A DNA stretch of 62,482 nt from an uncultured Dehalococcoidaceae bacterium (GTDB lineage: Bacteria; Chloroflexota; Dehalococcoidia; Dehalococcoidales; RBG-16-60-22). The notes beneath the pieces are model-generated. The model was given only the letters and a program-made list of their open reading frames with translations. It ran no database searches and was not told where the DNA came from. Positions 13,452-29,245 of this stretch are shown here, piece by piece. The stretch covers positions 1 to 62,482 of the forward strand of contig CAYWAU010000001.1 of the NCBI GenBank assembly GCA_964456395.1, written 5' to 3'. Each line of letters begins with the position of its first letter. Within the stretch, counting starts at the first letter, position 1. The position numbers and the translations under genes were made by a program.

Positions 13452-13530
13452 GGATGGTTCCGCTGTAGCATACATTGCGGCAGCCAGAAAATTATGTGAA
13501 CCGCCGACTCTGGAGTTTTCACCGAAAATT

Positions 13531-13554: not shown

Positions 13555-13594
13555 GAAGAGACTGTTTACCTGACAACATATAATTCCGCTTCCC

Positions 13595-13615
13595 GGGCAA
13601 CCGGCAAGGTTGCCC
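13595..13615 (+). promoter_or_regulatory. 8-bp stem hairpin in the 5' leader of Fe-ADH 1
   Basis: GGGCAACC-ggcaa-GGTTGCCC, located 40 nt upstream of the 13656 start. Confidence 0.3.
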
Positions 13616-13655
13616 GTAAAATACAACATTTATCTATCATAGAAGGAGAAAAGCC

Positions 13656-14867
13656 ATGATAAATAAAGAGATGTTTGAGTTTCCCATAACCTATACCAAT
13701 GTTATCCCCAGGATAGCCCTGGGATGGGGAGCCCATGAGACGGTTGCCGATGAATGCAAAGCCGCCAAAATTAAAAAGGCGTTGATTGTGACCTCAGGTT
13801 TGAAAGGAACCGGCATCGTCGACGAAATCAAAGGAATTCTGGAGCACAATGGCGTGCCGACAGAAATCTACGACAAGATCACTTCCAACCCTAAAGACTA
13901 TCAGGTGATGGAAGCTTATAAGGTCTTGAAGGACGGTGAATGCGACGGGGTGGTTTCGGTTGGCGGCGGCAGTTCCCACGATTGCGGCAAAGGCGTTCGT
14001 GTGGTGGCGGCCAACGGCGGAAAGGACATCCTGAACTTCTCCGCGTTTATAGACCCGCCCTGGATGGAAGAGGTTAAAAAATATAATCCGTGTACTATAC
14101 CGCAAATCACGGTTAATACCACATCCGGCACAGGGGCAGAGGTTTCGTCCATGGCAACCATTACGAGTGTGAAGGGCAGGGCAAAGCTATTGATTATTGC
14201 GCCAAATATTGTTGCCGACGTAGCCATTATCGACCCGCTATTAATACGGTTACAGCCTAAAAATATTGCTGCCTGGACAGGCTTCGATGCCATGACACAT
14301 GGATTCGAGGCATTTGTAACCAAGGTACAGGGCCCCTACGCCTATGGAATGCTGCTACGGGCGATTCAGCTCATTACAGAAAATCTCAGAGACTTTACTT
14401 ACAACCGGATGAACAATATCGCCTGTGAAAGAATGTGCTGGGCGGCGACAATGGGTGGCATCGCCATCGGCTTCGGCGCCGGTGCCGGCATTGTTCACGG
14501 ATTAGGACATCAACTCGGGGCATTAACTGACTGCCACCATGGTCTGGCCAATGGTGTTCTCACAATTGCGGGAGAGAGATATAATCAACCTGCCTGTGTT
14601 GAGAAACTCGCCGTCATGACCAAAGCGATGGGAGTTGATACCAGCAATATGACTGAATCGCAGGCCGCCGAAAGGTGGTTTGATGAAATGGAAAACCTGC
14701 TGAAGGACTTGGAAATCACCCCCGGCCAGTTGAACAAGCAGTTCGGGCTTCAGGAAAAGGACTTGGAACATATTGTCAAAATATACTCCAATGACTTCTG
14801 CAGCCAGGGAAATCCGCGAGAATTCAACGCCGAGGAAGCTCTCAACGTACTAAAGAGTATACTCTAA
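13656..14867 (+). CDS. iron-containing (type III) alcohol dehydrogenase, Mno/Mdo (nicotinoprotein methanol dehydrogenase)-like
   Basis: 403 aa. SNPKDYQVMEA, GGGSSHDCGKG, TTSGTGAE, HGLGHQLG, HHGLANG, and a GNPRE tail. The overall pattern resembles actinobacterial NDMA-dependent methanol dehydrogenases. Confidence 0.8.
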   Translation: MINKEMFEFPITYTNVIPRIALGWGAHETVADECKAAKIKKALIVTSGLKGTGIVDEIKGILEHNGVPTEIYDKITSNPKDYQVMEAYKVLKDGECDGVVSVGGGSSHDCGKGVRVVAANGGKDILNFSAFIDPPWMEEVKKYNPCTIPQITVNTTSGTGAEVSSMATITSVKGRAKLLIIAPNIVADVAIIDPLLIRLQPKNIAAWTGFDAMTHGFEAFVTKVQGPYAYGMLLRAIQLITENLRDFTYNRMNNIACERMCWAATMGGIAIGFGAGAGIVHGLGHQLGALTDCHHGLANGVLTIAGERYNQPACVEKLAVMTKAMGVDTSNMTESQAAERWFDEMENLLKDLEITPGQLNKQFGLQEKDLEHIVKIYSNDFCSQGNPREFNAEEALNVLKSIL

Positions 14868-15098
14868 AGGCTTGAGGAAGCTGAAAAGCTAAACAGAGAT
14901 AAGGGCAGACCCACCTGTAATGTGAGTGGCGATAACTTCTGCGTTACACTCCTACGAGGCTTACCTACCCGTGATATGAATCACAGTGCACACAAAGTCG
15001 GCTGTCACGGCAATAGAGACAGAGCTTAACGGAGGCAACGCCGGGGTCTGGCTTCAATTTGCTTTATAATAGCTCCACTGCTAGAATGCACAGGGGGT

Positions 15099-15206
15099 GG
15101 GGAAAGCCGGTTCCCTTCATGAAACGCGATACGGGAAAACCTATGCCAAGAATCATAGCAGAAGGAGGCGTATCCAGATAAATTAAAAGGGGAAAGGCCA
15201 GTTCCC
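15099..15206 (+). repeat. two copies of a GGGGAAAG-N-TTCCC hairpin motif 90 nt apart in the ADH1-ADH2 spacer
   Basis: ggggaaagccggttccc at 15099-15115 and ggggaaaggccagttccc at 15189-15206. Each can fold as a GGGAA/TTCCC stem. Confidence 0.35.
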
Positions 15207-15266
15207 GATTAAGCAGCTATGTGGACAATAAAAATCACAATATGTAGATGAAAAGGAGGAAAGCCA

Positions 15267-16487
15267 TTGATAAACGAAAATATACATCAATTTCCTATCA
15301 TTTACGCAGGTAACTGGGGCCTGGGCAGGATTGCCACCGGATGGGGTGCCCATAAGACCGTCGCCGACGAATGCAAGCAGCTCGGTATGAAGAAGGCGCT
15401 TATTGTGACCACCGGCCTGAAAGGAACCGGTATCGTCGATGAAATCAACCAGATTATATCAACCCAGGGTGTGGCGACAGAAATCTTTAGCGGGGTAACC
15501 TCCAACCCCAAAGACCATGAAGTTATGGCAGGCTATAAGGTCTTCAAGGAAGCTCAGTGCGACGGTGTGGTTTCGGTCGGCGGTGGCAGCTCACACGATT
15601 GCGGTAAAGCAATTCGCGCTGTTGCTTCCAACGACGGAACAGATGTTTCAAACTTCCAGCTGGGGATAGACCTGCCCTGGACGGAACAGATGAAAAAATA
15701 TAAAGCATGTACCATACCGCAGGTTTCGGTAAATACCACGTCCGGTACTGGTGCCGAGAACACGGGTGGTGCCGCTATCAACCAGTCCAATATCAGGGCC
15801 AAGCGAATAGCTATAGTACCGGGGACCGCACCCAGTATAGCAATTAATGACCCCCTGCTAATCCGGTGCCAGCCGGCACACATCGCCGCCCAGACCGGAT
15901 TTGACGGTTTCTGCCATGCCTTCGAGTCATATATAGCTCGCGTGCAACCGAAGCACAGTACCGTCCTAGCCGCCGGCGCCATCAAACTGATAGCCGAAAA
16001 TCTCAGGGAGTTTGCTTTCAACCGGATGAACCATGTAGCCTGTGAAAATGTCATCTGGGCATCGTCAATGTCGGGAGCCATAGGCCTCAGTCTTGGCGGA
16101 GGTGTCGGCGTGATACACGGTTTTGGACATGGACTCTCGGCACTGTATGGCGTTCACCATGGCCTTGCCAGCGCCGTCGTTACCATCCCGGGAGAGAGAT
16201 ATAATCAATCCGAGTGCCCTGATAAATTCGCCGAAATGGCCCAGGCTATGGGTGTTGATACCAGAAATATGACCAAGATGCAGGCCTCCGATGCGTGGTT
16301 CACCGAAGTTGAAAGACTGCTTGACGATTTGAATATCCAGACCGGGAACCTGAAGCGGTTCGGTCTCAAGAAAGAGGATATCCCGCATATTGTCAGGGTA
16401 CAGCATTCGCTCGATTTGACCGTAGTGGGCAACCCCAAGGACTACAATTATGACGAGTTAGTTGCCCTGTTTGAGACTCAGCTCTAA
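15267..16487 (+). CDS. iron-containing (type III) alcohol dehydrogenase, Mno/Mdo-like paralog
   Basis: 406 aa with TTG start after AAAGGAGGAAAGCC, the same RBS context as ADH1. Same motif set: SNPKDHEVMAG, GGGSSHDCGKA, TTSGTGAE, HGFGHGLS, HHGLASA, GNPKD. Confidence 0.8.
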   Translation: MINENIHQFPIIYAGNWGLGRIATGWGAHKTVADECKQLGMKKALIVTTGLKGTGIVDEINQIISTQGVATEIFSGVTSNPKDHEVMAGYKVFKEAQCDGVVSVGGGSSHDCGKAIRAVASNDGTDVSNFQLGIDLPWTEQMKKYKACTIPQVSVNTTSGTGAENTGGAAINQSNIRAKRIAIVPGTAPSIAINDPLLIRCQPAHIAAQTGFDGFCHAFESYIARVQPKHSTVLAAGAIKLIAENLREFAFNRMNHVACENVIWASSMSGAIGLSLGGGVGVIHGFGHGLSALYGVHHGLASAVVTIPGERYNQSECPDKFAEMAQAMGVDTRNMTKMQASDAWFTEVERLLDDLNIQTGNLKRFGLKKEDIPHIVRVQHSLDLTVVGNPKDYNYDELVALFETQL

Positions 16488-16633
16488 AGACCCCAAGAAC
16501 GGCGGTTGGGAAAATGCAGTGAGATAACTGCATTGATAGCCAGCGGGTGGCAGGGAGTCCCCTGGTAATTGTACAATAATAATAGGACTTGGTACCTACA
16601 GGATAAATCATAGCGGACGGAAGGCAGGTTAAG

Positions 16634-16765
16634 ATGGGAAAAGAACAGAAATCAGCGGTAGCAACGGCGAAAAATGAGGTCAAAACCACCCAGGAAGAAC
16701 CCGAGGTTTTAGAGGAAATCGTCGTTGAAGAGCTGAGCATAGACGGCGTTTGCGGGGTATACTAA
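16634..16765 (+). CDS. mftA: mycofactocin-type precursor peptide MftA (43 aa, absent from the ORF track)
   Basis: ATG at 16634, TAA at 16763-16765. Translates to MGKEQKSAVATAKNEVKTTQEEPEVLEEIVVEELSIDGVCGVY. The C-terminal IDGxCGVY signature sits directly upstream of MftB/MftC-like genes. Confidence 0.85.
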   Translation: MGKEQKSAVATAKNEVKTTQEEPEVLEEIVVEELSIDGVCGVY

Positions 16766-16767
16766 AT

Positions 16768-17034
16768 ATGGCGTGCCGCCTGGCAAATAATATTCAGGTA
16801 AGAAAGGAAAGCTGGGGTCTGCTGTTCTATTTGCAGGACCCGCACCGGGTCTGCTTTGTCAGAAGTGGCGACTGGCTTTATCCCCGGTATTTCGACGGAA
16901 CCTGGACATTTGACAGTCTGGCCGGCGACATCGCCCGGCGTACCGGAACCCCCGCTGAGATTATTGAGCGTTCTGTCCAAAAGCTATCCAAGCACTTGAT
17001 GGATAATGGGATAATTATCAATGAACCATGCTGA
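16768..17034 (+). CDS. mftB: PqqD-like peptide chaperone (RRE), MftB
   Basis: 88 aa from ATG 16768; the track start at 16750 is a TTG inside mftA. VRKESWGLLFY...PRYF... is a PqqD/MftB-like pattern. Overlaps mftC by 14 nt. Confidence 0.75.
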   Translation: MACRLANNIQVRKESWGLLFYLQDPHRVCFVRSGDWLYPRYFDGTWTFDSLAGDIARRTGTPAEIIERSVQKLSKHLMDNGIIINEPC

Positions 17035-18046
17035 CTGGCCGTTATCCGCCCCGGTAACTATAACCTGGGAAATTACACACCAATGTAACCTCAGTTGTAT
17101 CCATTGTCTTTCCAGCAGCAATGTAGAAACGCCCGGTGAACTGGACCTGGAAGAGTGCCTGTCAATTGTTGACCAGCTGGCGGCTCTTAAAGTATTTGAA
17201 ATCAACTTTGGCGGGGGGGAGCCATTACTCAAGAGCTATCTCATCCCTCTGTTGCGTTACATTCACCAAAAGGGGATGGTGACCTGCATCAGTACCAATG
17301 GTACCGTGTTCAATGATGAGGCGGTGGCTTACTTTACGGGCAATCCCCTGGTGAATATCCAGGTAAGTCTGGATGGCGCCACCCCCGAGGTCAACGACAG
17401 GATACGCGGTCAAGGAACATTCCCCCGGATTATCAAGGGGATTGAGCTTCTGGCCGGGAGGGATATACCCCTCTCTATCAATACCGTTGTTACCTCCCTT
17501 AACTTTAAGCAGCTGGGACAGCTCAAAGAGATGGCCGGTTCCTTCGGCGCCCGGCTCCGCGTGTCGCGGTTTCGCCCGTCGGGTCGTGCCAGGGATAACT
17601 GGGAACTGTTGAGGCTGGGTCCATCGCAATTGCAGGAATTATCCGACTGGTTGAGCGATGACCAGAGTATTTTGACCGGCGACTCTTTCTTCTCTATATC
17701 AGGTGATGGCAGACGACAGCTCGGCCTGGACATGTGCGGAGCCTGCAAGATGACCTGTTGTATCGACCCCTGTGGCCTGGTTTTCCCCTGCGCCTTCATG
17801 CAGGAAAGGGATTTCTGTGCCGGCAGCTTAAAGGTGTCTTCCTTCCAGGAAATCTGGGATTCATCGGACGTCTGCCAGTATTTCCGGCAACTGGAACCGG
17901 AAGCCTGCCGGAAATGCCCTCGCTTCAATACATGCCGCGGCGGCTGTCCCGCCGTGGCTTACTTCGTCAGTAAAGACCTCAACAGCCCTGACCCTGAATG
18001 CTTGATTAATTGGAGCCGGGATATATCACCTCTATCACCAGCTTAA
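17021..18046 (+). CDS. mftC: radical SAM/SPASM peptide maturase, MftC
   Basis: CNLSCIHC (CxxxCxxC) radical SAM cluster and GGGEPLL. C-terminal SPASM Cys array (CGACKMTCCIDPCGLVFPC...CRKC...CRGGCPA). Confidence 0.85.
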   Translation: MNHADWPLSAPVTITWEITHQCNLSCIHCLSSSNVETPGELDLEECLSIVDQLAALKVFEINFGGGEPLLKSYLIPLLRYIHQKGMVTCISTNGTVFNDEAVAYFTGNPLVNIQVSLDGATPEVNDRIRGQGTFPRIIKGIELLAGRDIPLSINTVVTSLNFKQLGQLKEMAGSFGARLRVSRFRPSGRARDNWELLRLGPSQLQELSDWLSDDQSILTGDSFFSISGDGRRQLGLDMCGACKMTCCIDPCGLVFPCAFMQERDFCAGSLKVSSFQEIWDSSDVCQYFRQLEPEACRKCPRFNTCRGGCPAVAYFVSKDLNSPDPECLINWSRDISPLSPA

Positions 18047-18081
18047 GGTGAGTAATATTATATCTGACAGGGGACAGAGAT

Positions 18082-20037
18082 ATGTACGGGCAATTTAAAT
18101 ATCTATTCTCACCACTACAGATAGGCAAGACAATAGTGCCGAATCGCATTTCTTTTTCCTCTCATCTAACCAACTTCGCCGAGGATAATTTACCAAGCGA
18201 GCGGCATACCTACTACCTGGCCGAGCGTGCCAGGGGTGGCGCCGGTCTGATAATAACCGAGGAACAGTCCGTGCACCCTACCGACCACTCATACGAAAAA
18301 CTCATCGATGCCTTCAAACCGGAGGTTATTCCCGGCTACCGCAGGATATGTAAGGCCGTTCATGAGTACGAAACGAAGATTTTCGCCCAGTTAAACCACA
18401 ATGGCGCTCAGGGTGACGGGACTATTTCCAGATTGCCCCTATGGGCACCTTCCCCGGTACCTGACGTGATGTTCCGGGAAGTGCCCAAGGAGATGGAACT
18501 GGAAGACATCAGGGAAGTTATTGAATCTTTCGGCAAGTCGGCAGCTCACGTCCGGGAAGGAGGCTTTGACGGTATTGAGTTGCAGATTAGCCACAGCTCC
18601 CTGCTGAGGCAGTTCCTGTCCCCTCTATCAAACCTTCGCACCGATGATTACGGCGGCAGCCTGGAGAACCGGATGAGGTTGGCTCTGGAGGTAATCGCAG
18701 CCGTTCGGGCAACGGTTGGGCTTGACTTCACTCTGGGGATGCGCCTTTGTGCCGATGAGATGATTCCCGGCGGCCTGACCCTTGACGATACCAGGGAGAT
18801 GGCACGCCGCTTTGAAGCCACCGGAAAAATTGATTTTATTGACCTGAGTATAGGAACTTTCTATAATCTTTATCTTGTCGGCGGCACGATGCACACTCCC
18901 CTGGGATATACCATTCCGCTGTCCGCCGGCATCAAAGAGGTGGTCAATCTGCCTGTCTTTGCCACCGGCCGGATTAATGACCCCGTAATGGCGGAGAGAA
19001 TCCTGGCTGAAGGTCAGGCTGACATGATTGGTATGGTACGCGCCCAGATTTGCGACCCCGAGATGGCCAATAAAGCCAGGGATGGCAGACTTGAGGAGAT
19101 AAGATACTGTGTTGCCGACAACCAGGGCTGTTACGGACGGATAGCCATGAACAAGGATATCGGCTGTATGCAAAATCCGTCCATCGGACATGAAAAGGAG
19201 ATGGGCATCGGCTCCATTAAACCGGCATCGGTTAAGAAAAGAGTATTGATTGTCGGCGGCGGGCCAGCCGGCCTGCGGGCGGCTGAGGTAGCGGCTAAAC
19301 GCGGGCATAACGTAACACTTTATGAAAAGAATGAGAAGCTGGGAGGTCAGGTTAATATTGCCGCACTTGGAACCGGACGGGAAGAAATCAGTGCTATTAT
19401 TCGTAATGAGGAGAACCAGCTTAAGATACTGCCGGTGGAAATCATCCTTAACAAAGAGGTCTCACCCGAATTCGTCCTGGCACAGAAGCCTGACACGGTT
19501 ATTATTGCCACCGGCTCGGTGCCCAAGGAAAGCCCGGTGCCGGGTGCCGACGGCACCAACATTTTCAACGTCTGGCAGGTACTTTCCGGTGAGGCAGAGC
19601 TGGGGAAACGGGTTCTCTTTATTGATTATGACGGGCATCACCAGGCCACAGCCACAGCCGAATACCTTGCCGATAAGGGTAAAGAAGTCCACATGCTCAC
19701 CTCCTCTTTATTCGTCGGGCAAGACCTGGGGCCGGTGCAGGACCTGTATCTCACCCGGCAGCGCCTCCTGCAAAAGGGCGTTACCTCTACGCCGGACTTC
19801 GCCGTCATGGAGATAAAGGGACTGGAGGTAAACGGCTTCAACGTTTATTCCAACGAGTGGCATACCTTCAGCGGCTATGACTCCATAGTGCTCGCCATGG
19901 GCAACCGTGTGGAAGACGCTCTTTATAAAGCCCTGAAAGGTAGAGTGAAAGAGCTTTACCGGATTGGCGATTGTGTGGCACCTCGCAAGATAGATATGGC
20001 GATACTGGAAGGCGATAAAGTGGGCAGGATGATTTAA
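18082..20037 (+). CDS. OYE-like FMN / Fe-S / FAD-NAD(P) oxidoreductase (2,4-dienoyl-CoA reductase / enoate reductase family)
   Basis: 651 aa. OYE TIM-barrel N-terminal half. Fe-S motif region CVADNQGC-x11-C. Rossmann segment VLIVGGGPAGLRAAEVAAKRGHNVTLYEK. Confidence 0.8.
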   Translation: MYGQFKYLFSPLQIGKTIVPNRISFSSHLTNFAEDNLPSERHTYYLAERARGGAGLIITEEQSVHPTDHSYEKLIDAFKPEVIPGYRRICKAVHEYETKIFAQLNHNGAQGDGTISRLPLWAPSPVPDVMFREVPKEMELEDIREVIESFGKSAAHVREGGFDGIELQISHSSLLRQFLSPLSNLRTDDYGGSLENRMRLALEVIAAVRATVGLDFTLGMRLCADEMIPGGLTLDDTREMARRFEATGKIDFIDLSIGTFYNLYLVGGTMHTPLGYTIPLSAGIKEVVNLPVFATGRINDPVMAERILAEGQADMIGMVRAQICDPEMANKARDGRLEEIRYCVADNQGCYGRIAMNKDIGCMQNPSIGHEKEMGIGSIKPASVKKRVLIVGGGPAGLRAAEVAAKRGHNVTLYEKNEKLGGQVNIAALGTGREEISAIIRNEENQLKILPVEIILNKEVSPEFVLAQKPDTVIIATGSVPKESPVPGADGTNIFNVWQVLSGEAELGKRVLFIDYDGHHQATATAEYLADKGKEVHMLTSSLFVGQDLGPVQDLYLTRQRLLQKGVTSTPDFAVMEIKGLEVNGFNVYSNEWHTFSGYDSIVLAMGNRVEDALYKALKGRVKELYRIGDCVAPRKIDMAILEGDKVGRMI

Positions 20038-20053
20038 CGACCGGGGGAGAAAA

Positions 20054-21070
20054 ATGGCCAAACCAAGAGAAATCTGGGTGCTGCCGGAGATAAACAACAA
20101 CGAAGAGGAAATCGGCAAGCTGAGCCTGGGACTCCTCTCCGAAGCCAGCTATATTGCGGGAAAGGCTGGCGGCACCGTAACCGCCCTGGTGCTTGGCGGC
20201 CAGAGCCAGGACTATTCTGAAGTCCTCGGTCAATATGGAGTCGCCAAGGCGTATATATTTATAGACCCTGTTCTTGAATACTTCTCCGCGGAGGCTTACT
20301 CGGCGGCTCTGCTGCCCAGAATTCAGGAAGATAAACCCTGGCTTCTGCTTATGGGCAACACCACCATCGGCAGGGAGCTGGCTCCCCGGCTGGCGGCGTT
20401 TTTCGAGACAGGCATAATCTCAAACTGCGCTAAAATGGACATATCCCATCCGGAGAGTCCGATATTCTTTCGCCTGATTTACGGAGACCAGCTCTACCAG
20501 GAGGTAATCTTTCAGACCAGCCAGACAATGCTGGTAACCATGGACCCGAGAGTTTTAAACATAAACCCTGTTGCAAAAAGGAGCAAAGCAAAAACTCTGG
20601 TGATTGAGCCAAGACTGTCTCCGGAGGTAATAAGGGCAGAGCATCTGGAATTCCTGCCGGCCGATTTCAAAACCGTGGATGTTGCCGAAGCTGATACTAT
20701 TGTCTCCGCTGGTATGGGAGCCGCCACTGACGAACTGCTGCCTCTGGTTGAGGAACTGGCCGGTCTGATTGAAGGCACTATCGGCACCACCCGGCTGGTT
20801 GTTGACGGCGGGCAAATATCCCGGGAGCGGATGATTGGACAAACCGGTAAGGTGGTCAGCCCGGAGCTCTACCTGGCTCTGGGAATATCGGGGGCGACCC
20901 ACCACGTCGGCGGCATTCAGGACTCGGGAAAAATCATCTCAGTTAACCGCGACCCGCAGGCTCCAATCTTCAGGAATTCCGATGTAGGCATAGCGGCTGA
21001 TATTAAGGACGTATTGCCCAAACTAATCGAAAAAATCAAGCAGGCTAAAAGCAATGGCACAATACTTTGA
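20054..21070 (+). CDS. fixB: electron transfer flavoprotein alpha subunit (FixB/EtfA)
   Basis: 338 aa. C-terminal FAD-binding motif LYLALGISGATHHVGGIQDSGKIISVNRDPQAPIF. Confidence 0.85.
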   Translation: MAKPREIWVLPEINNNEEEIGKLSLGLLSEASYIAGKAGGTVTALVLGGQSQDYSEVLGQYGVAKAYIFIDPVLEYFSAEAYSAALLPRIQEDKPWLLLMGNTTIGRELAPRLAAFFETGIISNCAKMDISHPESPIFFRLIYGDQLYQEVIFQTSQTMLVTMDPRVLNINPVAKRSKAKTLVIEPRLSPEVIRAEHLEFLPADFKTVDVAEADTIVSAGMGAATDELLPLVEELAGLIEGTIGTTRLVVDGGQISRERMIGQTGKVVSPELYLALGISGATHHVGGIQDSGKIISVNRDPQAPIFRNSDVGIAADIKDVLPKLIEKIKQAKSNGTIL

Positions 21071-22352
21071 TGTTATCATAGTCGGAGCCGGACCAGCCGG
21101 CAGCATGGCAGCCCTTAAACTGGCTCGAGCCGGACTGAAGGTTGTTATGCTGGAACGGGGCCAACGCCCCGGCTCCAAGAACATGTTCGGCGGGCTGCTT
21201 CACAATACGCCGGCTCTGAATGAAATGCTGCCTGCTTTCTGGGAAAGGGCACCCCTGGAACGGCACGTGTTTCAAAAAGTTCTTGCCTTCATGACCCCGA
21301 CTTCTTCCGTTTCCATGACCTTTGAAACCGAAAAATTTGAACAGCCTCCCTACAACGGCTACACCGTATTCCGTCCCGTTTTTGACAACTGGCTGGCTGG
21401 CGAAGCCGTCAAAGAAGGGGCTTTATTACTCTGCGATTGTACGGCCGAGGATTTGATTCAAAAAGACAGACAGGTGGTCGGCGTCACCGTTAAAGGCAGG
21501 GACGGCGAACTGAGAAGCAGCATAGTCATCGCGGCTGACGGAGTCCTGTCTTTTATGGCTGAAAAAGCCGGCCTGAGGCAAGATTTCCGCGCCGCCGACA
21601 TGGGCCTGGGCATCAAGCTCCTCCTGGGCCTGCCCGAGGCAACCATAGACGAGCGGTTCCACCTGGCCCGGGATGAAGGGGCTGACATCAGCTTTGTAGG
21701 CACGACAAATGGACTGCGCGGCGGCAGCTTCCTCTATACCAACCGTGAAAGTATCTCCATCGGCATGGTAGTGCATCTCGACTCGCTGAGGGCATCGGGT
21801 AAAGCCCCCTATCAGGTTCTGGATGAATTACTGCTGCACCCCCATGTCAGAAAGCTGCTCAAGGGCGCCGAGCCGCTGGAATACTCGGCACACCTTATCC
21901 CGGAAGGCGGCATCAAGGCAATACCAAAGCTTTATACCGGCGGGATGCTGGTCGTCGGCGACGCCGCCGGTCTGTGTTATACCAACGGCATCAATCTGGA
22001 AGGAATCAACCTGGCCATGACTTCCGGAGCGCTGGCTGCCGAGACGGCTCTGCAGGCAATAGAAGCCGGAGACTACAGTGCCCGGATGCTGTCATTATAT
22101 AAAAAGAAGCTGGACGGCAGCTTCATCATGAAAGATATGAAAACGTTTAAAAACGCCGTCGGCATGATGCATATGGAGCGACTGTTTCAGGCTTATCCGG
22201 AAATTGCCGGCAATATACTGGAAAAGATATACAGAGTTGAAGGCGTCCCCAGGCCAAAACTCCTGCGCCTGGCACGAAAAGAAGCGCTGAAAAAAGTGAA
22301 ACTGACAGACCTGGTTTCAGACGGCATTAAAATAGGCAAGTCATTATTATGA
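21054..22352 (+). CDS. fixC: FAD-dependent ETF:quinone-type oxidoreductase FixC
   Basis: 432 aa. FDVIIVGAGPAGSMAALKLA dinucleotide fold and GDAAG motif. Sits between fixB and fixX. Confidence 0.8.
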   Translation: MAQYFDVIIVGAGPAGSMAALKLARAGLKVVMLERGQRPGSKNMFGGLLHNTPALNEMLPAFWERAPLERHVFQKVLAFMTPTSSVSMTFETEKFEQPPYNGYTVFRPVFDNWLAGEAVKEGALLLCDCTAEDLIQKDRQVVGVTVKGRDGELRSSIVIAADGVLSFMAEKAGLRQDFRAADMGLGIKLLLGLPEATIDERFHLARDEGADISFVGTTNGLRGGSFLYTNRESISIGMVVHLDSLRASGKAPYQVLDELLLHPHVRKLLKGAEPLEYSAHLIPEGGIKAIPKLYTGGMLVVGDAAGLCYTNGINLEGINLAMTSGALAAETALQAIEAGDYSARMLSLYKKKLDGSFIMKDMKTFKNAVGMMHMERLFQAYPEIAGNILEKIYRVEGVPRPKLLRLARKEALKKVKLTDLVSDGIKIGKSLL

Positions 22353-22624
22353 ATGTTGATAATTTACCGCAACTAACACAATTCCAGGTTGACGAACAGC
22401 CCCATATTGTCTTGAATAAGGAAATCTGTCAGTCCTGTGACCACCGTGCCTGTGTCCAGTCGTGTCCGGCTAACTGCTATACCTTCGATGAAGCCACCAG
22501 AATGATGAGCGTCGTCTATGAGACATGTCTGGAGTGCGGCACCTGTTACGTAATTTGTGACCAAGGAGCCATTGATTGGAGCTACCCCAGGGGTGGCTAC
22601 GGAGTATGCTTTCGCCTGACCTAG
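22349..22624 (+). CDS. fixX: ferredoxin-like protein FixX
   Basis: 91 aa. CQSCDHRACVQSCP and CLECGTCYVIC motifs. ATGA overlap with fixC. Confidence 0.8.
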   Translation: MNVDNLPQLTQFQVDEQPHIVLNKEICQSCDHRACVQSCPANCYTFDEATRMMSVVYETCLECGTCYVICDQGAIDWSYPRGGYGVCFRLT

Positions 22625-22655
22625 AACTGAAGCCCGGCATGACGTGGTAATAGCC

Positions 22656-23558
22656 ATGAAGATTATTGTCTGCTTGAAAGAGGTGGTTGATACTAATCTG
22701 AGCCTTGGTTTCGGCTTGAGCAACCGGGTGGTCTTCCAGGAAGGACTGCCGCTCAGGCTGAATCCGGATGACACCGAGGCACTGGCAAAGGCACTCAACC
22801 TCAAACAGTCAGATGATGAAGCCCAGGTTGAAATCACCCTCATCTCTATCGGCCCGGAAAGGGTGGAGGGCTACTTAAGAGACGGACTGGCTCTTGGAGC
22901 CAACAGAGCGGTGCGCATACGGCAGGACAGCCTCATGGAGCTATCTTCTCATCAAAAAGCCAGGCTACTGTCCAGAGCCGTTTCTCTATTTGGTGCCGAC
23001 CTCGTTTTAACCGGAGCCGGGAGTCTGGATACCGGCAATGGTCAGGTAGGCCCGCTGATGGCGGCCTGGCTTGACCTGCCCTGTATCGGCGAAGTGGTCG
23101 GATTTAAGCTAGCCGATGAAAAAAAGAGCATCACGCTAACCAGAGACATCGGCAGAGGCGCCCGGGAAAAGATACGGTGCTCTCTGCCGGCGGTCATAAC
23201 CGTGAAAGGAGAAGGAAAACTACACTATGCTTCTCTGGATAGGCTTGTGGAGAGTAAATATGGTGAGATAATTCGGCTTACTCTGGCTGACCTTGGTACA
23301 TCTGACGTTGAGTTGAAAAATGACCCCACCAGGATTACTGGTCTGGCTTACCCGAGGCCCAGGCCCAGGAAAACACCGGCGCCAGAAAGCTCGTTACCGG
23401 CGTTTTACAGAATCCTGAAGCTACTGGAGGGAGGCATCTCCCGGCGACAGGGGGAAATGCTCCAGGGCAGCAGCCAGGAGCTGGCTGACCAGCTCTTTGA
23501 GCTACTTATAGAAGAGGGCGTGATTGAGTCAGCCACAGAAAAGGGCTCCGGTAAATGA
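22656..23558 (+). CDS. fixA: electron transfer flavoprotein beta subunit (FixA/EtfB) with ~40-aa C-terminal extension
   Basis: MKIIVCLKEVVD is a typical EtfB N-terminus, and the ORF ends in a Pro/Arg-rich linker plus tail. GTG at 22644 is an alternative start. Confidence 0.8.
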   Translation: MKIIVCLKEVVDTNLSLGFGLSNRVVFQEGLPLRLNPDDTEALAKALNLKQSDDEAQVEITLISIGPERVEGYLRDGLALGANRAVRIRQDSLMELSSHQKARLLSRAVSLFGADLVLTGAGSLDTGNGQVGPLMAAWLDLPCIGEVVGFKLADEKKSITLTRDIGRGAREKIRCSLPAVITVKGEGKLHYASLDRLVESKYGEIIRLTLADLGTSDVELKNDPTRITGLAYPRPRPRKTPAPESSLPAFYRILKLLEGGISRRQGEMLQGSSQELADQLFELLIEEGVIESATEKGSGK

Positions 23559-23602
23559 CCCGGAGCCGAGCCAGCAATAAATTATGAGCGGATGACCCTT
23601 CT

Positions 23603-25051
23603 ATGGCAGGATTTGGCTTTTCATTAGCGGACAACACCTATTTAAGAGAAGACCCCGACGGTAATTTTCTGCTCTCCAATCTGCCCCTGAGAATACTCCG
23701 AATAAACAAACCTCTCTTCCGACTCCTCAAGCACCTCCAGGGGGGTGGCGAATTGCCCGAATTTGTCAGTCAGAACCCGGGGCTGGAGGAGGGGCCTTTG
23801 CTGAGGGTCCTGCTGTCTCTGGCATCCAGGGGATACCTGAAATTAGAGAGAATAGCCAAAATAGAAGACTACCCCATCGTCTCCATTGTCATTCCAGTCC
23901 GAGACCAGCCTGAAGATATCATTGAGTGCCTCCAATCGCTGAGAAATCTGGATTATCCGGGAGACCGGTTTGAAGTTATTGTGTTAGATGACGGTTCCCA
24001 GGCTGAAGTCTCTCAGGGTGTTACTACTCCCGATGTTATGGTCATCAGGCAAGACGAGTCACGGGGCGCCTCTGTCTGCCGAAACATCGGGGCTGAAAAG
24101 GCTCGCGGCAAAATCCTGGCCTTTCTGGACGCCGACTGTATTGCCCCTGAGAACTGGCTAAAGGAAACCATTCCCTTTTTCAAAACGGCGACGGTCGGGG
24201 CGGTAGGCGGTTATGTGGACGGCTATTACAAAGACAGCTATCTGGACCGGTACGAAGAGGTCTCTTCATCGCTGAACATGGGGAAGCGGCTCCTCCTGGA
24301 AGGCAATACGGAATCAAACTTTTATGTGCCTACGGCCAATATGCTGATTAACAGGGACGCCTTTATGGCTACCGGTGGTTTCAGGAGCGGTATGCACCTG
24401 GGTGAGGACGTGGATTATTGCTGGCGAATGAGAAACCTCGGCTACACCCTGCTCTACGTTCCTTTTGGCAGGGTTGCCCATAAGCACCGCAACCGCCTCG
24501 GTAAAATGCTGAAAAGACGGAGCGAATACGGGACATCGGAAGCCAGGCTCTACCTCATTCACCGGGATAAAAGGAAGACCTTTCTCATTTCTGTCTGTGC
24601 CGGATTATCTTTCCTGGCCCTGACCCTCTCTGTTTTGCTTTTAAATCCTTATCCCCTCTGCCTTATCCTGTTATTATTCGGGATTGACCTGCTCCGGAAA
24701 TCCGGCACGCTGAGGAAGTTCAAAATGCTGCTTCCTTTCCGACAAATAGCCTGCGCCACCCTGAGAAGCTATTTTTCCTCCTATTATTTCGCTCTGTTTC
24801 ACCTGGTAAGATATTACCTGTTCTTAATATTTGGGCTCGGCTTCTGGCTTCACTCCGTGTGGCTTTTTGGCGGCCTGGCGGTGCTCTTCACATCAATCGT
24901 AGATTATTCCGTAAAAAAGCCGAATCTGCCTTATCCGGCCTTCCTTTTCTTTTATGTCCTGGAACATCTGGCATACCAGATAGGGGTTCTCCGGGGGTGC
25001 CTAAAATTAAAATATTTCAGGTCGTATATCCTTTCCTTCAGGCGTGCCTGA
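23603..25051 (+). CDS. mftF: family 2 glycosyltransferase with membrane-spanning C-terminal region, MftF-like
   Basis: 482 aa. N-terminal PqqD-like segment (LLSNLPLRILRINKPLFRLL). GT-A core (VSIVIPVRDQ, VLDDGS, FLDADC). Hydrophobic C-terminal ~140 aa. Same transcription unit as mftABC. Confidence 0.7.
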   Translation: MAGFGFSLADNTYLREDPDGNFLLSNLPLRILRINKPLFRLLKHLQGGGELPEFVSQNPGLEEGPLLRVLLSLASRGYLKLERIAKIEDYPIVSIVIPVRDQPEDIIECLQSLRNLDYPGDRFEVIVLDDGSQAEVSQGVTTPDVMVIRQDESRGASVCRNIGAEKARGKILAFLDADCIAPENWLKETIPFFKTATVGAVGGYVDGYYKDSYLDRYEEVSSSLNMGKRLLLEGNTESNFYVPTANMLINRDAFMATGGFRSGMHLGEDVDYCWRMRNLGYTLLYVPFGRVAHKHRNRLGKMLKRRSEYGTSEARLYLIHRDKRKTFLISVCAGLSFLALTLSVLLLNPYPLCLILLLFGIDLLRKSGTLRKFKMLLPFRQIACATLRSYFSSYYFALFHLVRYYLFLIFGLGFWLHSVWLFGGLAVLFTSIVDYSVKKPNLPYPAFLFFYVLEHLAYQIGVLRGCLKLKYFRSYILSFRRA

Positions 25052-25089
25052 TTCCCGAAAAAAGACATTTTTTATGGCGATAATAAAGG

Positions 25090-26280
25090 ATGAAGATAAA
25101 TATTAAAGGTGATTATTATCGGGCGGCCGTCAGGTTGCTGGGCAACGCTCTCAGGTTCCGCTATTCAAAATTTACGGGAGCCCCTTTAAAGCCGGCGGTA
25201 GTCAGTCTGGCAGTGACAAATCGCTGTAACTCCCATTGTATCATGTGCAATATCTGGCAGAGAGCCAGGGAGCTACCCGGTATCAAGAGTCTGGAGATGC
25301 CCCAGAAAGAGATTCTGGACTTATTATCACGTCCCCTGTTTTCAGAGCTGGTTGAGCTGGACTTAACCGGCGGCGAGCCTCACCTGAGAGATGACCTGGT
25401 TGACATCGCGCTCAGCATAGCCAGTCTCAAAAAAAGCTCTCTGCCAAGACTGAGGAGCATCATCATTACCTCTAACGGCTTATTACCCCGACAGGTAATC
25501 TCAAACCATCAGAGAATTCTGGAAGGTTTAAAAGGCACAAATATAGACCTGGTCAGTGTTGCCTCAATGGATGGGATTGGGGAAACTCACGACTTTATCA
25601 GGGGAACCAGGGGTGCTTTTGAACTGGCTACCAAAACAATCAGCGGGCTTCTGGAACTCAGGAAGAAATACCCCGATTATTTCATCGGCATAAAAACCAC
25701 AATCCTGCCCCAGAACGTCAATAGTCTTGATGCTATTCTGGATTATGCTCTGGAAAAGAATATTTTTCATATCATTTCACCGGTCTTCTTCACCGAAGCG
25801 AGGTTCAGAAATACGGACAAAATAGATGAATTAACGCTGGGACCTGATGAATATAAAGAGGTCCTGAAATTTTTCAGTCGTGATGAATTAAAGACGAGCT
25901 ACTTCTACCCTTTGGCACGAAGCTTCCTGGCTACCGGGCGAAAGCAATGGGCGTGTACCGCCTTTCACAACTATCTGTTCATCGATTTTGACGGAACGGT
26001 ATATCCCTGCGAACTGATATCCGAGCCAATCGGTAACGTCAGAGAGCAGGACGTGGCGGACATCTGGAACGGTGCCGAGGCTCGTCACTGGCGGAAAAGA
26101 ATCGGGAAACTGGAATGTTGCCGTACCTGCAATGAGCCCGGCGCGATACGGTACAGCGCCTGCACCGAGGGATTCAGCTACCTTAAGTTTTTGGTGAAGC
26201 TCGGCAGGCAAAAATTCCGTAAGACCCTTTACGGAGAGGGTTTTTACAAATATTTTGGTGATTTACAGGCAAAGAAATGA
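25090..26280 (+). CDS. second radical SAM / SPASM-domain protein of unknown substrate
   Basis: 396 aa. CNSHCIMC (CxxxCxxC), LTGGEPHL, and C-terminal Cys-rich region (CTAF...YPCE...CCRTCNEPG...C). Starts 38 nt after mftF. Confidence 0.75.
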   Translation: MKINIKGDYYRAAVRLLGNALRFRYSKFTGAPLKPAVVSLAVTNRCNSHCIMCNIWQRARELPGIKSLEMPQKEILDLLSRPLFSELVELDLTGGEPHLRDDLVDIALSIASLKKSSLPRLRSIIITSNGLLPRQVISNHQRILEGLKGTNIDLVSVASMDGIGETHDFIRGTRGAFELATKTISGLLELRKKYPDYFIGIKTTILPQNVNSLDAILDYALEKNIFHIISPVFFTEARFRNTDKIDELTLGPDEYKEVLKFFSRDELKTSYFYPLARSFLATGRKQWACTAFHNYLFIDFDGTVYPCELISEPIGNVREQDVADIWNGAEARHWRKRIGKLECCRTCNEPGAIRYSACTEGFSYLKFLVKLGRQKFRKTLYGEGFYKYFGDLQAKK

Positions 26281-26294
26281 GGCGGGCGACCGCA

Positions 26295-27962
26295 TCAATC
26301 GCGCAGAACCGCCCCGCGGCTGGCTGAGGTTACCCTGTCCGCATAGCGCTTGAGGTAGCCGGTTTTTACCCTAGGCTCAAAGACGGGTAATTGTGCTAGG
26401 CGATTTTTTATCTCCTCATCGGTCAATTCCACTTCAAGTTTATGGTTGGGAATATCAATGCTTATCATGTCGCCGTCATGTATAATAGCTATCGGCCCGC
26501 CGCTGGCTGCCTCCGGTGATATGTGACCGATAGCCGGCCCGCGCGTCGCCCCGGAGAAACGACCGTCGGTAACAAGGGCGACCTCCCTGTCTTTGCCCAT
26601 GCCGCAGAGCAAGGCAGTTGTCCACAGCATTTCCACCATGCCGGGACTGCCCCTGGGTCCTTCGTAGCGAATCACGAGCACATCGCCACTCTTGAAATTC
26701 TGGTTCATTACTGCCTTGGTCGCTTCCGCTTCCGAATTGAAAACTCGTGCCGGACCCCGGTGGACAAGCATCTCAGGAGCGACGGCACCGCTTTTCACCA
26801 CAGCGCCATCGGGAGCCAGGTTGCCAGATAAAACGGTAATGCCGCCGGTGGCCGCATAGGGGTCAGCTAACGGACGGATTACCTTCCGGTCCATCACCCT
26901 AGCAGCTTCAAGGTTCTCTCCCAGCGACCTGCCGGTAACCGTCTTGACTTCAAGATTCAGCAAAGGCTCAAGCTCCTTCATCACGGCAGGTATGCCGCCG
27001 GCGAGGTCCAGATGCTGTAACCGGTATTCCGATGCCGGGCTGAACTTGGCAAGCAAAGGGGTCTGGCCGCTAATCTCGTTGATAAGCGAAAGAGGAAAAT
27101 CAATGCCGGCCTCGTGGGCTATCGCCGGCAGGTGCAATACCGTGTTGGTGCTGCCGCCCACCGCCATGGCGACCACAAAGGCGTTGTAAACGGATTCCCC
27201 GGTAACAATGTCGCGCGGACAGACATTCTCATTGACCAGCCCCACAATTCTTCTGCCGGCACCCTTAGCCAGATTATTTCTTCGTACATCCACCGCCGGG
27301 ATAGTGCCGTTGCCGGGTAGCGCCATGCCCAGGGCTTCCGTCAGGCAGTTCATGGTATTGGCGGTGAACATACCGGCACAGCTACCGCAGGTCGGACAGG
27401 CAGCGTGAGCCAGGTTTTCCAGGTCTTCTTCACTGATTTCGCCTCTTAATGCCGGCGCCATACTTTCCGCAACGGTAGCCAGGTCAATCAATCTGGACTC
27501 ACCGTTTTCGTAGACCCGCCCCGCCAGCATCGGCCCCCCACTGACAAAGATTGAGGGTATGTTTACCCTGACGGCGCCCATGAGCATACCGGGCACTATT
27601 TTGTCGCAGTTGGGTATAAGAACGAGACCATCCAGGGGATAAGCCCCGGCCAGGATTTCCACGGAATCAGCAATAAACTCCCGACTGGGCAGGTTATACC
27701 TCATGCCCGGGAGTCCCTCATTGATGCACTCTCCCAGCGCTATGGTACCCAGCTCAAACGGGACACCGCCGGCACTGCGGACACCCGCTTTCACCGAGCT
27801 GGCAATACCATCCAGATGGGCATGTCCGGGGAATATCTCGCTCTTACTATTGATAATCCCGATAAACGGCTTCTTTAAATCTTCCTCACTGCAACCCACC
27901 GCATAAAGTGCGGCGCGCTGTGGCGCATGCTCAATCCCCTTTTTGGTAGCGTCACTTCTCAT
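26295..27962 (-). CDS. ilvD: dihydroxy-acid dehydratase (IlvD/Edd family)
   Basis: 555 aa. [41 protein letters not shown]. Confidence 0.85.
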
Positions 27963-27997: not shown

Positions 27998-29245
27998 CTA
28001 ACTGATGCAGTACTGGATGTCAGCGTTCGGGTAGACGGCAACCCGGGCGTCAGACCCGTGATTTTCCCGGAGCACCTGCAGGACGTCACTCCACCGGTGC
28101 ATCATCAGGACCTTATCCGTTTCCTCAAAGTAGCCCATGCTGGCAAGTTCAGGGTATTCGCTGAAGACGATTAAACGATTCACATTCGGCGGCGGCTTCA
28201 TCTGAAGCCTCAACCGCCCGCCGATGGTATTCCCGAAGGTACCCATCAGGTAGTGAGTCATCTGACCTTCCGGTGCATTGGCGATAAGAACGATATCTCC
28301 ACCCCGCTGACTTACTGCCGGGAAGGCGAGTAACAGTCCGCAGATTGCCTCATTAACCTTGGCAAAGGTGTTGGTAATGACGATATCCTTGTCCTCGGCG
28401 GCCGGGGTGAGGTAGTGAGCCCTGGATTCATTAAGGCCGGCGGTATAGGCTGGGCCGGGGTCGCCGGCAAAAATGGCGACTGTCTCACCCCACATATTGA
28501 CAATGGCGTCTATCTTGATATCCATTTTGACCATTGCGGCGGCTTCGTCGGTATCCCGGCGCCTCGGGTTATTCTCCACAACCCCCATACCGGTAACCGT
28601 CCCGCCAAAGCCCTGCTCTTTGCCCGATGACCTGGGGTTATGGAAGGCTTTCATCGTCGCCAGAGCCGCTACTCCCGGCAGCAACATCTTGCCGCCACCG
28701 CCGAACCCGGTCATAATATGCGGTACGATAGAACCGATGCCTATCTTAAGGTCGCATTTCATTACTTCGGCATTGATAAGCACTCTGGTGCCACCGGTGG
28801 TAGTGCCGACGTAAACGCAGTTGGCAAACGGGTCATGATTATAAACCGGAAACCGCGACAGGGTATCCTCCCCCAGTTTCTTCACGAAATCAAGTCGGTT
28901 CATCGCCCCGTGAGAGCCGAGGGCGGCAATGAATCGTATCCGGCTATCGGGGATGCCGGCAGCCGCCAGTTCCTCCAGGACATGAGGCACTATCTCCGCC
29001 ACTCTGGTAACACGCGCCATGTCATCAAAGATGATAACCACCTCTTTCCTGCCCCGGGCATACTCTTTCAACGGCGGCATGCCGATGGGATTAGCTATAG
29101 CTTCCTTTATCTCAGCCGGTTTCAGGTGCGGACGATTATATCCGGCCATATTGCAGACTTCCACCTGCCAGCTATCGGGAACGGAAAGCTCCAGGTCCTT
29201 AACGCCGTGCCATGCCAGTTGCGGCAATTTAATGGTACTCGCCAA
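27998..29245 (-). CDS. LarA-like nickel-pincer-dependent 2-hydroxyacid racemase/epimerase (DUF2088)
   Basis: 415 aa. By eye it aligns to L. plantarum LarA catalytic and cofactor residues: ALGSHG (His108 equivalent), VPHIMTGFGGGGKMLLPG (His174/Lys184 equivalents), AFHN (His200 equivalent). Confidence 0.7.
   Translation of the reverse strand: MASTIKLPQLAWHGVKDLELSVPDSWQVEVCNMAGYNRPHLKPAEIKEAIANPIGMPPLKEYARGRKEVVIIFDDMARVTRVAEIVPHVLEELAAAGIPDSRIRFIAALGSHGAMNRLDFVKKLGEDTLSRFPVYNHDPFANCVYVGTTTGGTRVLINAEVMKCDLKIGIGSIVPHIMTGFGGGGKMLLPGVAALATMKAFHNPRSSGKEQGFGGTVTGMGVVENNPRRRDTDEAAAMVKMDIKIDAIVNMWGETVAIFAGDPGPAYTAGLNESRAHYLTPAAEDKDIVITNTFAKVNEAICGLLLAFPAVSQRGGDIVLIANAPEGQMTHYLMGTFGNTIGGRLRLQMKPPPNVNRLIVFSEYPELASMGYFEETDKVLMMHRWSDVLQVLRENHGSDARVAVYPNADIQYCIS

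Follow-up and report, generated by a model that had tools for sequence, protein, structure and literature searches.

We analysed a mycofactocin (mft) gene cluster in an uncultured Dehalococcoidaceae bacterium (assembly GCA_964456395.1, contig CAYWAU010000001.1); the whole stretch of DNA considered, 62,482 nt in length, is referred to below as the window. Ten open reading frames (ORFs) on the + strand span positions 16634-26280 (Table 1; coordinates recomputed). They consist of mftA, mftB and mftC, a gene for a flavoprotein of the Old Yellow Enzyme (OYE) class (OYE2), four genes for the subunits of an electron transfer flavoprotein (ETF) and an ETF:quinone oxidoreductase (ETF-QO)-like pair (etfA/fixB, fixC, fixX and etfB/fixA), mftF, and a gene for a second radical SAM protein (rSAM2). 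The junctions from mftA to rSAM2 measure +2, -14, +35, +16, -17, -4, +19, +44 and +38 nt. An earlier, sequence-only reading of this DNA had counted 11 ORFs and four overlaps, where the recount gives ten and three; the eight junctions that it listed were all correct, only that between fixX and fixA (+19 nt) having been left out, and its statement that no gap exceeds 45 nt agrees with a largest recomputed gap of 44 nt.

Table 1. Positions of the genes of the mycofactocin cluster, the alcohol dehydrogenases (ADH) upstream of it and other features of the window.
Feature	Position	Strand	Remarks
mftA, precursor peptide, 43 aa	16634-16765	+	TIGR03969 39.9 bits (cut-off 25)
mftB, PqqD-like chaperone, 88 aa	16768-17034	+	2 nt past mftA; 14-nt overlap with mftC
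mftC, radical SAM/SPASM maturase	17021-18046	+	TIGR03962 347.8 bits (cut-off 265), profile positions 7-334 of 339
OYE2, FMN/[4Fe-4S]/FAD-type three-domain flavoprotein, FadH/NCR/TMADH class	18082-20037	+	TIGR03997 962.4 bits (cut-off 793.15), profile positions 2-645 of 645
etfA/fixB, large ETF subunit	20054-21070	+	PF01012 and PF00766
fixC, ETF-QO-like flavoprotein	21054-22352	+	PF21162 (ETF-QO ubiquinone-binding domain) 33.5 bits (cut-off 27.7)
fixX, ferredoxin-like	22349-22624	+	Fer4 domains, weak Fer4_ETF_QO match; 4-nt overlap with fixC
etfB/fixA, small ETF subunit	22644-23558	+	PF01012; C-terminal extension of ~45 aa
mftF, glycosyltransferase	23603-25051	+	TIGR03965 335.2 bits (cut-off 280), full length
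rSAM2, second radical SAM/SPASM protein	25090-26280	+	PF04055 and PF13186; no NCBIfam equivalog
Zn-ADH, MDR family	12420-13451	+	First gene of conserved same-strand block; NCBIfam MDR-family matches only
Fe-ADH 1, family III	13656-14867	+	Best NCBIfam match TIGR04266 (NDMA-dependent methanol dehydrogenase), 265 bits, below cut-off; has TSNPKDYQV
Fe-ADH 2	15267-16487	+	54% identical paralogue of Fe-ADH 1; has TSNPKDHEV
GlcD-like FAD oxidase and LdhH/GlcF-like Fe-S (CCG) subunit	9502-12172	-	Divergent from Zn-ADH
LarA-like gene (Lar_N, nickel-pincer 2-hydroxyacid racemase family)	27998-29245	-	Convergent, downstream of mft block
Glutamate mutase gene, MutL-type	57777-59171		
Glutamate mutase gene, MutE	59691-61160		
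ORF, 315 aa	8372-9322	-	
ORF, 225 aa	61577-62257	-	
tRNA-Ala (TGC)	61221-61294	-	

The core genes are those that the sequence-only reading had named: MftA, MftC and MftF pass the cut-offs of their curated families, and MftB is supported by profile-profile comparison. MftA is also matched by NF040489 (36.9 bits, cut-off 30) and PF23709 (33 bits, cut-off 27). It terminates in IDGVCGVY, CGVY being the invariant end of the canonical peptide, and its last 23 residues are kept in the related Chloroflexota loci L001 and L002. The closest homologues of MftC are 73-91% identical, and those that carry a name are mycofactocin radical SAM maturases of Chloroflexota. MftB has the right size and position, scores 22.5 bits on TIGR03967, below the cut-off of 33, and has no Pfam match. 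When compared by hhalign, the Chloroflexota MftB matched the Geobacter-type MftB with 96% probability and the latter matched the canonical actinobacterial MftB with 94% probability, while the direct comparison of Chloroflexota and canonical MftB gave 64% (E = 7e-5). This comparison through the Geobacter-type protein supports the identification of MftB.

The protein encoded directly after mftC belongs to TIGR03997, which curators named 'mycofactocin system FadH/OYE family oxidoreductase 2' and defined by its linkage to mycofactocin clusters; the cut-off of this family is also passed by members from Geobacteraceae (1006 bits) and actinobacteria (874 bits). The best solved relatives of OYE2 are 2-naphthoyl-CoA reductase (NCR; 6qkg, 323 bits) and FadH (1ps9, 298 bits). 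With these proteins, as with trimethylamine dehydrogenase (TMADH) and histamine dehydrogenase, OYE2 shares an OYE-like FMN barrel, a [4Fe-4S] site and two Rossmann-like domains; it differs from FadH and NCR in that their catalytic Tyr is not kept, a Ser standing in its place. In pairwise alignments, the position of TMADH His172 is a His in OYE2, a Glu in FadH and a Val in NCR. TMADH and histamine dehydrogenase are amine dehydrogenases that bind no NAD(P)H in their last domain and pass electrons from their [4Fe-4S] cluster to an ETF. The third domain of OYE2 reads FIDYDGHHQA where FadH has IIGCGGIGFD, TMADH ILNADTYFMA and histamine dehydrogenase VYDDDHYYLG. Since it has no GxGxxG and resembles TMADH and histamine dehydrogenase in this respect, an NAD(P)H site is unlikely in OYE2. 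This degenerate third domain, together with the position of etfA 16 nt downstream, points to an ETF as the partner of OYE2, as for TMADH, and we predict that ETF is its likely electron acceptor. All four Chloroflexota OYE2 sequences aligned have the cluster motif C-x2-D-x3-C...C, with Asp for the second [4Fe-4S] Cys, whereas the Geobacteraceae and Actinomycetota members, FadH, NCR and TMADH keep C-x2-C-x3-C...C. The change lies at 19099-19179 in the window (OYE2 residues ~340-366, YCVADNQGC...GC) and at L001:12080, L002:12615 and L004:12206.

The FixB-FixC-FixX-FixA identities proposed for the four genes between OYE2 and mftF were borne out by their Pfam domains, by which the four-subunit set EtfA, EtfB, FixC and FixX is complete. 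All four score below the E. coli-based equivalog cut-offs, FixC reaching 350 bits on NF007450 and 333 bits on NF007542, and FixX 55.8 bits on NF011993. The set shares with FixABCX and EtfAB-ETF-QO systems the same four genes, the gene overlaps and the quinone-binding domain of FixC, and differs from FixABCX in its B-C-X-A order, its sub-cut-off scores and, in EtfB, a divergent motif and the C-terminal extension. The best PDB relatives of EtfA (5ol2, 6fah, 7qh2, 4kpu and 7koe) are all bifurcating-type ETFs; those of EtfB are T. maritima FixA (7koe_A) and the M. methylotrophus ETF beta subunit (1o94_C). The nucleotide-site motif of EtfB is divergent, AGSLDTGNGQVG, the T. maritima 'GKQAVDGDTGQVG' aligning with 'GAGSLDTGNGQVG'.

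A homologue of rSAM2 directly follows mftF in L001, L006 and L009, whereas in L004, L005 and L084 it occupies another place in the locus, the deltaproteobacterial copies (L005, L006, L009 and L084) being 36-46% identical; none was found in L002, L003 or L007, nor in any of 36 actinobacterial-type loci. The family is small: at E <= 1e-20 it has 313 members in a set of 5.8 billion proteins, mostly from metagenome-assembled genomes of Chloroflexota/Dehalococcoidales. We rejected the idea that rSAM2 is specific to the mft system, since a 63%-identical homologue has no mft genes within 10 kb (L169), and we describe it as an accessory that is often present in clusters of this type. The loci concerned are L169:9448-11906 (GCA_041300405.1, a 2.3-Mb contig) and L170. 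The homologue is preceded by a gene for a PF04060 FeS protein and followed by one for a 145-aa ETF fragment; this may be the remnant of a decayed cluster or reflect an independent role for the family. As for the start of the window's rSAM2, the source gene call (P0394, 381 aa) is 15 residues shorter than the first-ATG ORF (396 aa), and homologues of 391-396 aa favour the longer form.

Upstream of mftA, on the same strand, lie genes for a zinc-dependent (Zn-ADH) and two iron-dependent (Fe-ADH) alcohol dehydrogenases. The end of Fe-ADH 2 is separated from the start of mftA by 146 nt. TIGR04266, whose members depend on N,N-dimethyl-4-nitrosoaniline (NDMA), is the first or second match of each Fe-ADH, in both cases below the cut-off, and both contain TSNPKD[YH][QE]V, a match to the TSNPKDYEVH hot spot of mycofactocin-linked Fe-ADHs (Haft 2011, PMC3023750). 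Fe-ADH 1, whose position is syntenic in L001-L004, is probably a mycofactocin-dependent nicotinoprotein. The Zn-ADH scores far under the TIGR03989 cut-off, and counterparts with 68-80% identity lie upstream of Fe-ADH and mftA in L001, L002 and L003. Judging from strand and from synteny in the relatives, the mft unit should thus extend upstream to the Zn-ADH and the two Fe-ADHs. It ends after rSAM2, because a convergent gene begins 14 nt beyond. A sigma-70-like site matching at 11/12 positions lies upstream of the Zn-ADH at 12341-12370; the promoter scan of 12000-26600 was overall not above chance (14 sites, against 13.1 expected from shuffled sequence), and the terminator scan of the same interval gave 17 sites against 14.4. 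As these scans did no better than shuffled sequence, the single-operon reading rests on gene spacing and conserved synteny. Rfam and tRNA scans revealed no element within or near the mft cluster.

The sequence-only reading had reported that mftD, mftE, mftR and mftG are missing from the 62 kb, and two kinds of search agree with it. NCBIfam or Pfam scans of the other 38 ORFs in the window that encode 150 aa or more revealed no member of the creatininase, FMN_dh, TetR or GMC families. In addition, tblastn searches of the six frames of the window (E <= 1e-4), with E. coli LldD, E. coli BetA, the MftE of L030 and the MftD of L084 as queries, gave no match. The absence of MftD, MftE, MftR and MftG is therefore real for the 62 kb, a statement that does not extend to the rest of the genome. 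The window cluster thus shares with the canonical mycobacterial mftA-F(+R,G) cluster an MftA with CGVY, MftB, MftC, MftF and adjoining nicotinoprotein-type alcohol dehydrogenases, and differs from it in having OYE2, EtfAB, FixCX and rSAM2 and, within the window, no D, E, R or G gene. MftD, MftE and MftR are not universal, only MftA, MftB, MftC and MftF being taken as such (Haft 2011, PMC3023750). In M. smegmatis, a ∆mftE strain still makes mycofactocin, another peptidase compensating for the loss, whereas a ∆mftD strain makes none (PMC7491314), which indicates that the oxidative deamination step is indispensable. About 25% of genomes with mftC are without MftG, and what replaces it has been stated as an open question (eLife 2025, PMC11778925).

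The sequence-only reading had proposed looking for the block in related Chloroflexota. In the four contigs that make up our Chloroflexota sample (L001-L004, reached via protein look-ups), the order (Zn-ADH)-Fe-ADH-mftA-B-C-OYE2-etfA-fixC-fixX-etfB-mftF is conserved, with MftC 73-82% identical, and the rSAM gene is present in L001 and L004 only. We also scanned with an OYE2 alignment, taking one genome per species and the best 600 candidates; no close Chloroflexota relatives appeared among the matches listed. The order from mftA to mftF was found again in L005-L007 (Geobacteraceae, Malonomonas and Geomonas) and in the further deltaproteobacterial loci L009, L084 and L171. These deltaproteobacterial clusters share with that of the window, besides gene order, a nearby Fe-ADH and rSAM2 and the lack of a local MftE, and among the matches listed their OYE2 is 61-66% identical to the window's. 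They belong to another phylum, with MftC ~50% identical (again among the matches listed) and ETF subunits 30-42% identical, and the Chloroflexota differ from them in the Asp of OYE2, the upstream Zn-ADH and the downstream LarA-like gene. L005 is flanked by genes for a glycerol-dehydrogenase-type ADH, an aldehyde:ferredoxin oxidoreductase, a NUDIX protein and a sensor kinase, and no creatininase or FMN_dh protein was found in these flanks. In the Microthrixaceae loci L011 and L075, OYE-etfA-fixC-fixX lies just ahead of mftE and mftF; in L075 OYE2 is itself preceded by an OYE1-like gene, and L011 shows a second, partial OYE match. Synteny across two phyla and membership in TIGR03997 show that the redox genes inserted between mftC and mftF are, as had been suggested, part of the cluster.

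The sequence-only reading had further raised the possibility of a previously undescribed variant, which the literature and the family databases do not uphold. TIGR03997 is already catalogued, and the mft clusters of G. uraniireducens (in Fig. 2) and Pelotomaculum were drawn in Haft 2011 (PMC3023750), where it was also noted that in anaerobes Fe-ADHs adjoin the radical SAM gene. The genome note on G. pickeringii links a methanol-oxidation cluster to an adjacent mycofactocin pathway, and in the literature that we searched mycofactocin in Chloroflexota or Geobacter was mentioned only in these two sources. A further precedent comes from Saccharopolyspora, where 17 clusters contain all mft genes but mftD, plus TIGR03997 'with unknown function' (BGCFlow, NAR 2024, PMC11162802), and where MMFT-2, MMFT-2H2 and MMFT-3 were detected in S. 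erythraea NRRL 2338 (Ellerhorst et al., PMC9679996). Taken together, these two reports indicate that an mftD-less TIGR03997 cluster can yield authentic mycofactocin; as the methylmycofactocin of S. erythraea is authentic, there is no need to invoke a cofactor that is matured in another way. We are highly confident that the mycofactocin system of the window is conserved and of a type that had been catalogued before. It is the Chloroflexota member of a type recorded in family databases and the literature and not studied experimentally.

A metagenome scan with an MftC alignment yielded 80 further loci, mostly actinobacterial, and 36 clusters with at least 7 kb downstream of mftC were used to count how often OYE and MftD genes occur together. 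MftD was found locally in 3 of the 16 loci with an OYE gene and in 17 of the 20 without one, a negative association (Fisher p = 1.3e-4) that holds when the OYE-type count is collapsed by lineage (MftD in 2/8, p = 0.005). The 13 OYE-type clusters without local MftD span at least six lineages, and in the 17 OYE-free clusters MftD adjoins mftC. In four Pseudonocardia-like loci (L030, L089, L092 and L122), an OYE1-OYE2 pair fills the slot between mftC and mftE that is normally held by mftD. In the Pseudonocardia locus L030, for example, mftA-B-C is followed by OYE1 (TIGR03996), OYE2 (TIGR03997) and MftE (TIGR03964, 334 bits), with no MftD in the locus. Like the window cluster, these actinobacterial clusters and those of Saccharopolyspora have no mftD and carry TIGR03997 after mftC; they differ in belonging to aerobes and in retaining mftE and the TIGR03996 partner of OYE2.

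Adjacent OYE1 and OYE2 genes of actinobacteria (L030:7967-11950 and L089:11290-15100) sometimes seem to be fused into proteins of ~1330-1450 aa, represented by P0122 (1334 aa) and P0123 (1456 aa); in L030, where the DNA has 74% GC, naive ORF calling may have created the fusion. The metagenome contigs L098 and L099 have actinobacterial-type mftC genes (at 4371 and 2054, respectively), with MftD, MftE, MftF and OYE undetected in the 8-10 kb downstream of mftC, and L110, L125 and L159 have mftC-mftE(-mftF) without mftD. These loci suggest that the architectures of mft clusters are more varied than the canonical picture.

Our preferred reading, to which we lean with somewhat more belief than doubt, is that the region is a complete TIGR03997-type (Geobacter-type) mycofactocin operon of an anaerobic, Dehalococcoidia-like Chloroflexota, in which OYE2, ETF and FixCX serve as an O2-independent redox unit. 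Judging from family membership, MftB would present MftA, MftC would decarboxylate and cyclise its C-terminal Val-Tyr, and MftF would glycosylate the core; the leader may be trimmed by a housekeeping peptidase, for which the M. smegmatis ∆mftE strain offers a precedent. The upstream Fe-ADH and Zn-ADH would use the cofactor as electron acceptor. OYE2-EtfAB-FixCX would act as one functional unit at carbon 3 of the pyrrolidinone, the MftD and MftG steps being oxidations at this same carbon. OYE2 could carry out the MftD step, in which the amine of 3-amino-5-[(4-hydroxyphenyl)methyl]-4,4-dimethylpyrrolidin-2-one (AHDP) is converted to the keto-amide, or the MftG step, in which the hydroxyl of mycofactocinol is oxidised to recycle the cofactor, or the two together. 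From OYE2, electrons would pass to ETF, on to the ETF-QO-like FixCX and thence to menaquinone, so that no O2 would be needed. MftD uses O2, and the midpoint potential of premycofactocin (PMFT) is -255 mV. The product is most likely ordinary mycofactocin and not a new cofactor.

That OYE2/ETF/FixCX acts on the redox centre of mycofactocin in at least one of these two roles seems to us moderately probable. Taken singly, each role is less secure. A part as an MftG-like electron outlet, which we regard as a nearly balanced question, is favoured by the cost of a four-gene chain, the adjoining ADHs and the lack of MftG in the 62 kb, and also by the clusters that have both OYE and MftD (L084, L171 and L106) and by the lack of MftG in about 25% of mftC genomes. 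The unit would share with MftG the re-oxidation of the cofactor and the delivery of electrons to the quinone pool; MftG is a GMC flavoenzyme, a mycofactocinol dehydrogenase unrelated in fold and cofactors, whereas the module is multi-subunit and its function a predicted one. Specific substitution for MftD, a tentative proposal that we hold with rather more doubt, is favoured by the negative association of OYE and MftD, the presence of OYE in the mftD slot and the S. erythraea result. It is doubtful that TIGR03997 and EtfAB-FixCX are the missing O2-independent enzymes for both MftD and MftG, with rSAM2 as an anaerobe-specific maturation factor.

Several observations weigh against the proposed redox unit. 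Bona fide MftD (TIGR03966, 546 bits) is encoded ~0.7-0.9 kb after mftF in L084 (frameshifted) and L171 (intact), beside a complete OYE2/ETF cluster, a gene that the window cluster does not have; OYE2/ETF and MftD are thus not strictly redundant. L106, with the order C-D-OYE1-OYE2-E-F-G, likewise holds OYE and MftD together. We accordingly rejected OYE as a strict replacement of MftD, given the presence of both in L106, L084 and L171, and retain the relationship as a tendency. The nearest relatives of the L084/L171-type MftD (92% and 88% identical; L087 and L088) are solitary, with no mft gene within 10 kb. The actinobacterial OYE1/OYE2 clusters have no ETF/FixCX in the cluster and no ETF genes nearby, and a four-gene ETF/FixCX chain is a large outlay for a biosynthetic step alone. 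OYE2 itself scores ~215-219 bits against TMADH and histamine dehydrogenase and is nearer to the reductases NCR and FadH. The TMADH Cys30, site of the 6-S-cysteinyl-FMN, aligns with a Leu of OYE2 (PHCIGAG in TMADH, SSHLTNF in OYE2). With no Cys30 equivalent and greater similarity to NCR and FadH, OYE2 was rejected as a TMADH-type amine dehydrogenase, and TMADH remains an analogy only. The ETF subunits fall short of the mycofactocin-associated families of NCBIfam, EtfA scoring 157 bits on NF038209 (mft_etfA; cut-off 240) and EtfB 80.7 bits on TIGR04503 (mft_etfB; cut-off 200, profile positions 28-288 of 290). On NF038209, L001 and L005 have alpha subunits that reach 146 and 140 bits, respectively, and their beta subunits have no match to TIGR04503 at E <= 1e-25. 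The assignment of the window ETFs to these families was therefore rejected on the basis of their scores, and they represent a different clade. Lastly, the literature contains no characterised TIGR03997 protein and no experiment on any member.

The co-occurrence of MftD with OYE2/ETF in L084 and L171, the solitary MftD genes of L087 and L088 and the gene content of L106 also favour the alternative that survives best, namely that biosynthesis is fully canonical, with MftD and MftE encoded elsewhere, and that OYE2-EtfAB-FixCX has no part in maturation and is only a downstream redox client, or an electron outlet of the mycofactocin pool or of the ETF pool. Only 62 kb of the genome are in view, and since unlinked mftD occurs in related deltaproteobacterial lineages, MftD and MftE may also sit elsewhere in the present genome. 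Two points make us consider this alternative unlikely on balance: local MftD is missing from 13 of the 16 OYE-type clusters and stands beside mftC in 17 of the 20 that are OYE-free, and the deltaproteobacterial MftD, which is 75-84% identical to that of actinobacteria and encoded after mftF, looks like a secondary, horizontal acquisition. These MftD genes lie at L084:17834-19125, L171:10001-11197 and, in both L087 and L088, at 10001-11180; in L084 and L171, mftD is followed by a hypothetical gene and then by eutBC.

It is also conceivable that the cluster makes a different MftA-derived cofactor, processed by rSAM2 and by OYE2 acting as a reductase, with ETF/FixCX supplying low-potential electrons by bifurcation. 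In line with this idea, rSAM2 accompanies this type of cluster in two phyla and is lacking in the 36 actinobacterial-type loci, the closest solved relative of OYE2 is the low-potential reductase NCR, the best PDB relatives of EtfA are bifurcating, and the conserved replacement of Cys by Asp in the cluster motif is confined to the Chloroflexota OYE2. We find it improbable, however, as the MftA core (CGVY), MftC and MftF are orthodox, S. erythraea makes standard methylmycofactocin with an mftD-less TIGR03997 cluster, and rSAM2 is both dispensable (L002, L003 and L007) and found away from mft genes (L169). Lastly, a chance juxtaposition of mftABC...F with unrelated OYE and fixABCX genes, for which one could cite the frequency of OYE and ETF genes in anaerobes and the mft-free OYE-ETF pairs of L012, L013, L016 and L020, is so improbable as to be effectively refuted by the recurrence across Chloroflexota and Desulfuromonadota of a gene order with short gaps and overlaps, by OYE-etfA-fixC-fixX in Microthrixaceae and by an OYE family curated for its mycofactocin linkage.

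The surroundings of the cluster are conserved to different degrees. The LarA-like gene was found in all five Chloroflexota loci (L001 ~20406, L002 18589-19863 and L004 ~20069, for example) and not in the Geobacteraceae loci, and the synteny of the GlcD-like/GlcF-like pair is kept in the closest relative, L001, only. The region 30936-61160 is rich in genes of acyl-CoA metabolism, with six family-III CoA-transferases, two MmgE/PrpD proteins, two acyl-CoA dehydrogenases, an enoyl-CoA hydratase and a thiolase-like protein, and it also contains a TRAP transporter with two DctP genes and the glutamate mutase genes. This content suggests an anaerobic metabolism of C5-dicarboxylates (methylaspartate, mesaconate or itaconate-like). 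The ORFs of 315 aa and 225 aa have no Pfam match at E <= 1e-5, the latter not even at E <= 1e-3 and the former having no NCBIfam match at E <= 1e-5 either.

The biochemistry of mycofactocin is known from aerobic actinobacteria only, where MftD builds the redox centre and MftG delivers electrons to aerobic respiration. If TIGR03997 flavoproteins and EtfAB-FixCX did replace both MftD and MftG, the reading that we consider doubtful, strict anaerobes such as Dehalococcoidia-like Chloroflexota and Geobacteraceae could oxidise alcohols without O2 by means of mycofactocin that they themselves produce and recycle. This would address two gaps, namely how the cofactor is recycled in mftC genomes that lack MftG and how the keto-amide is formed in clusters that lack mftD. 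The OYE2-EtfAB-FixCX module travels with mftABC and mftF in Chloroflexota, Desulfuromonadota and some Actinomycetota, and tends to occur where mftD is absent. It thus offers a concrete candidate, amenable to cloning, for the two activities that are missing, and the cluster described here provides a well-defined test case rather than a new kind of system. Our analysis also hints at a place for mycofactocin-dependent alcohol oxidation in the anaerobic metabolism of widespread Chloroflexota of sediments and aquifers.

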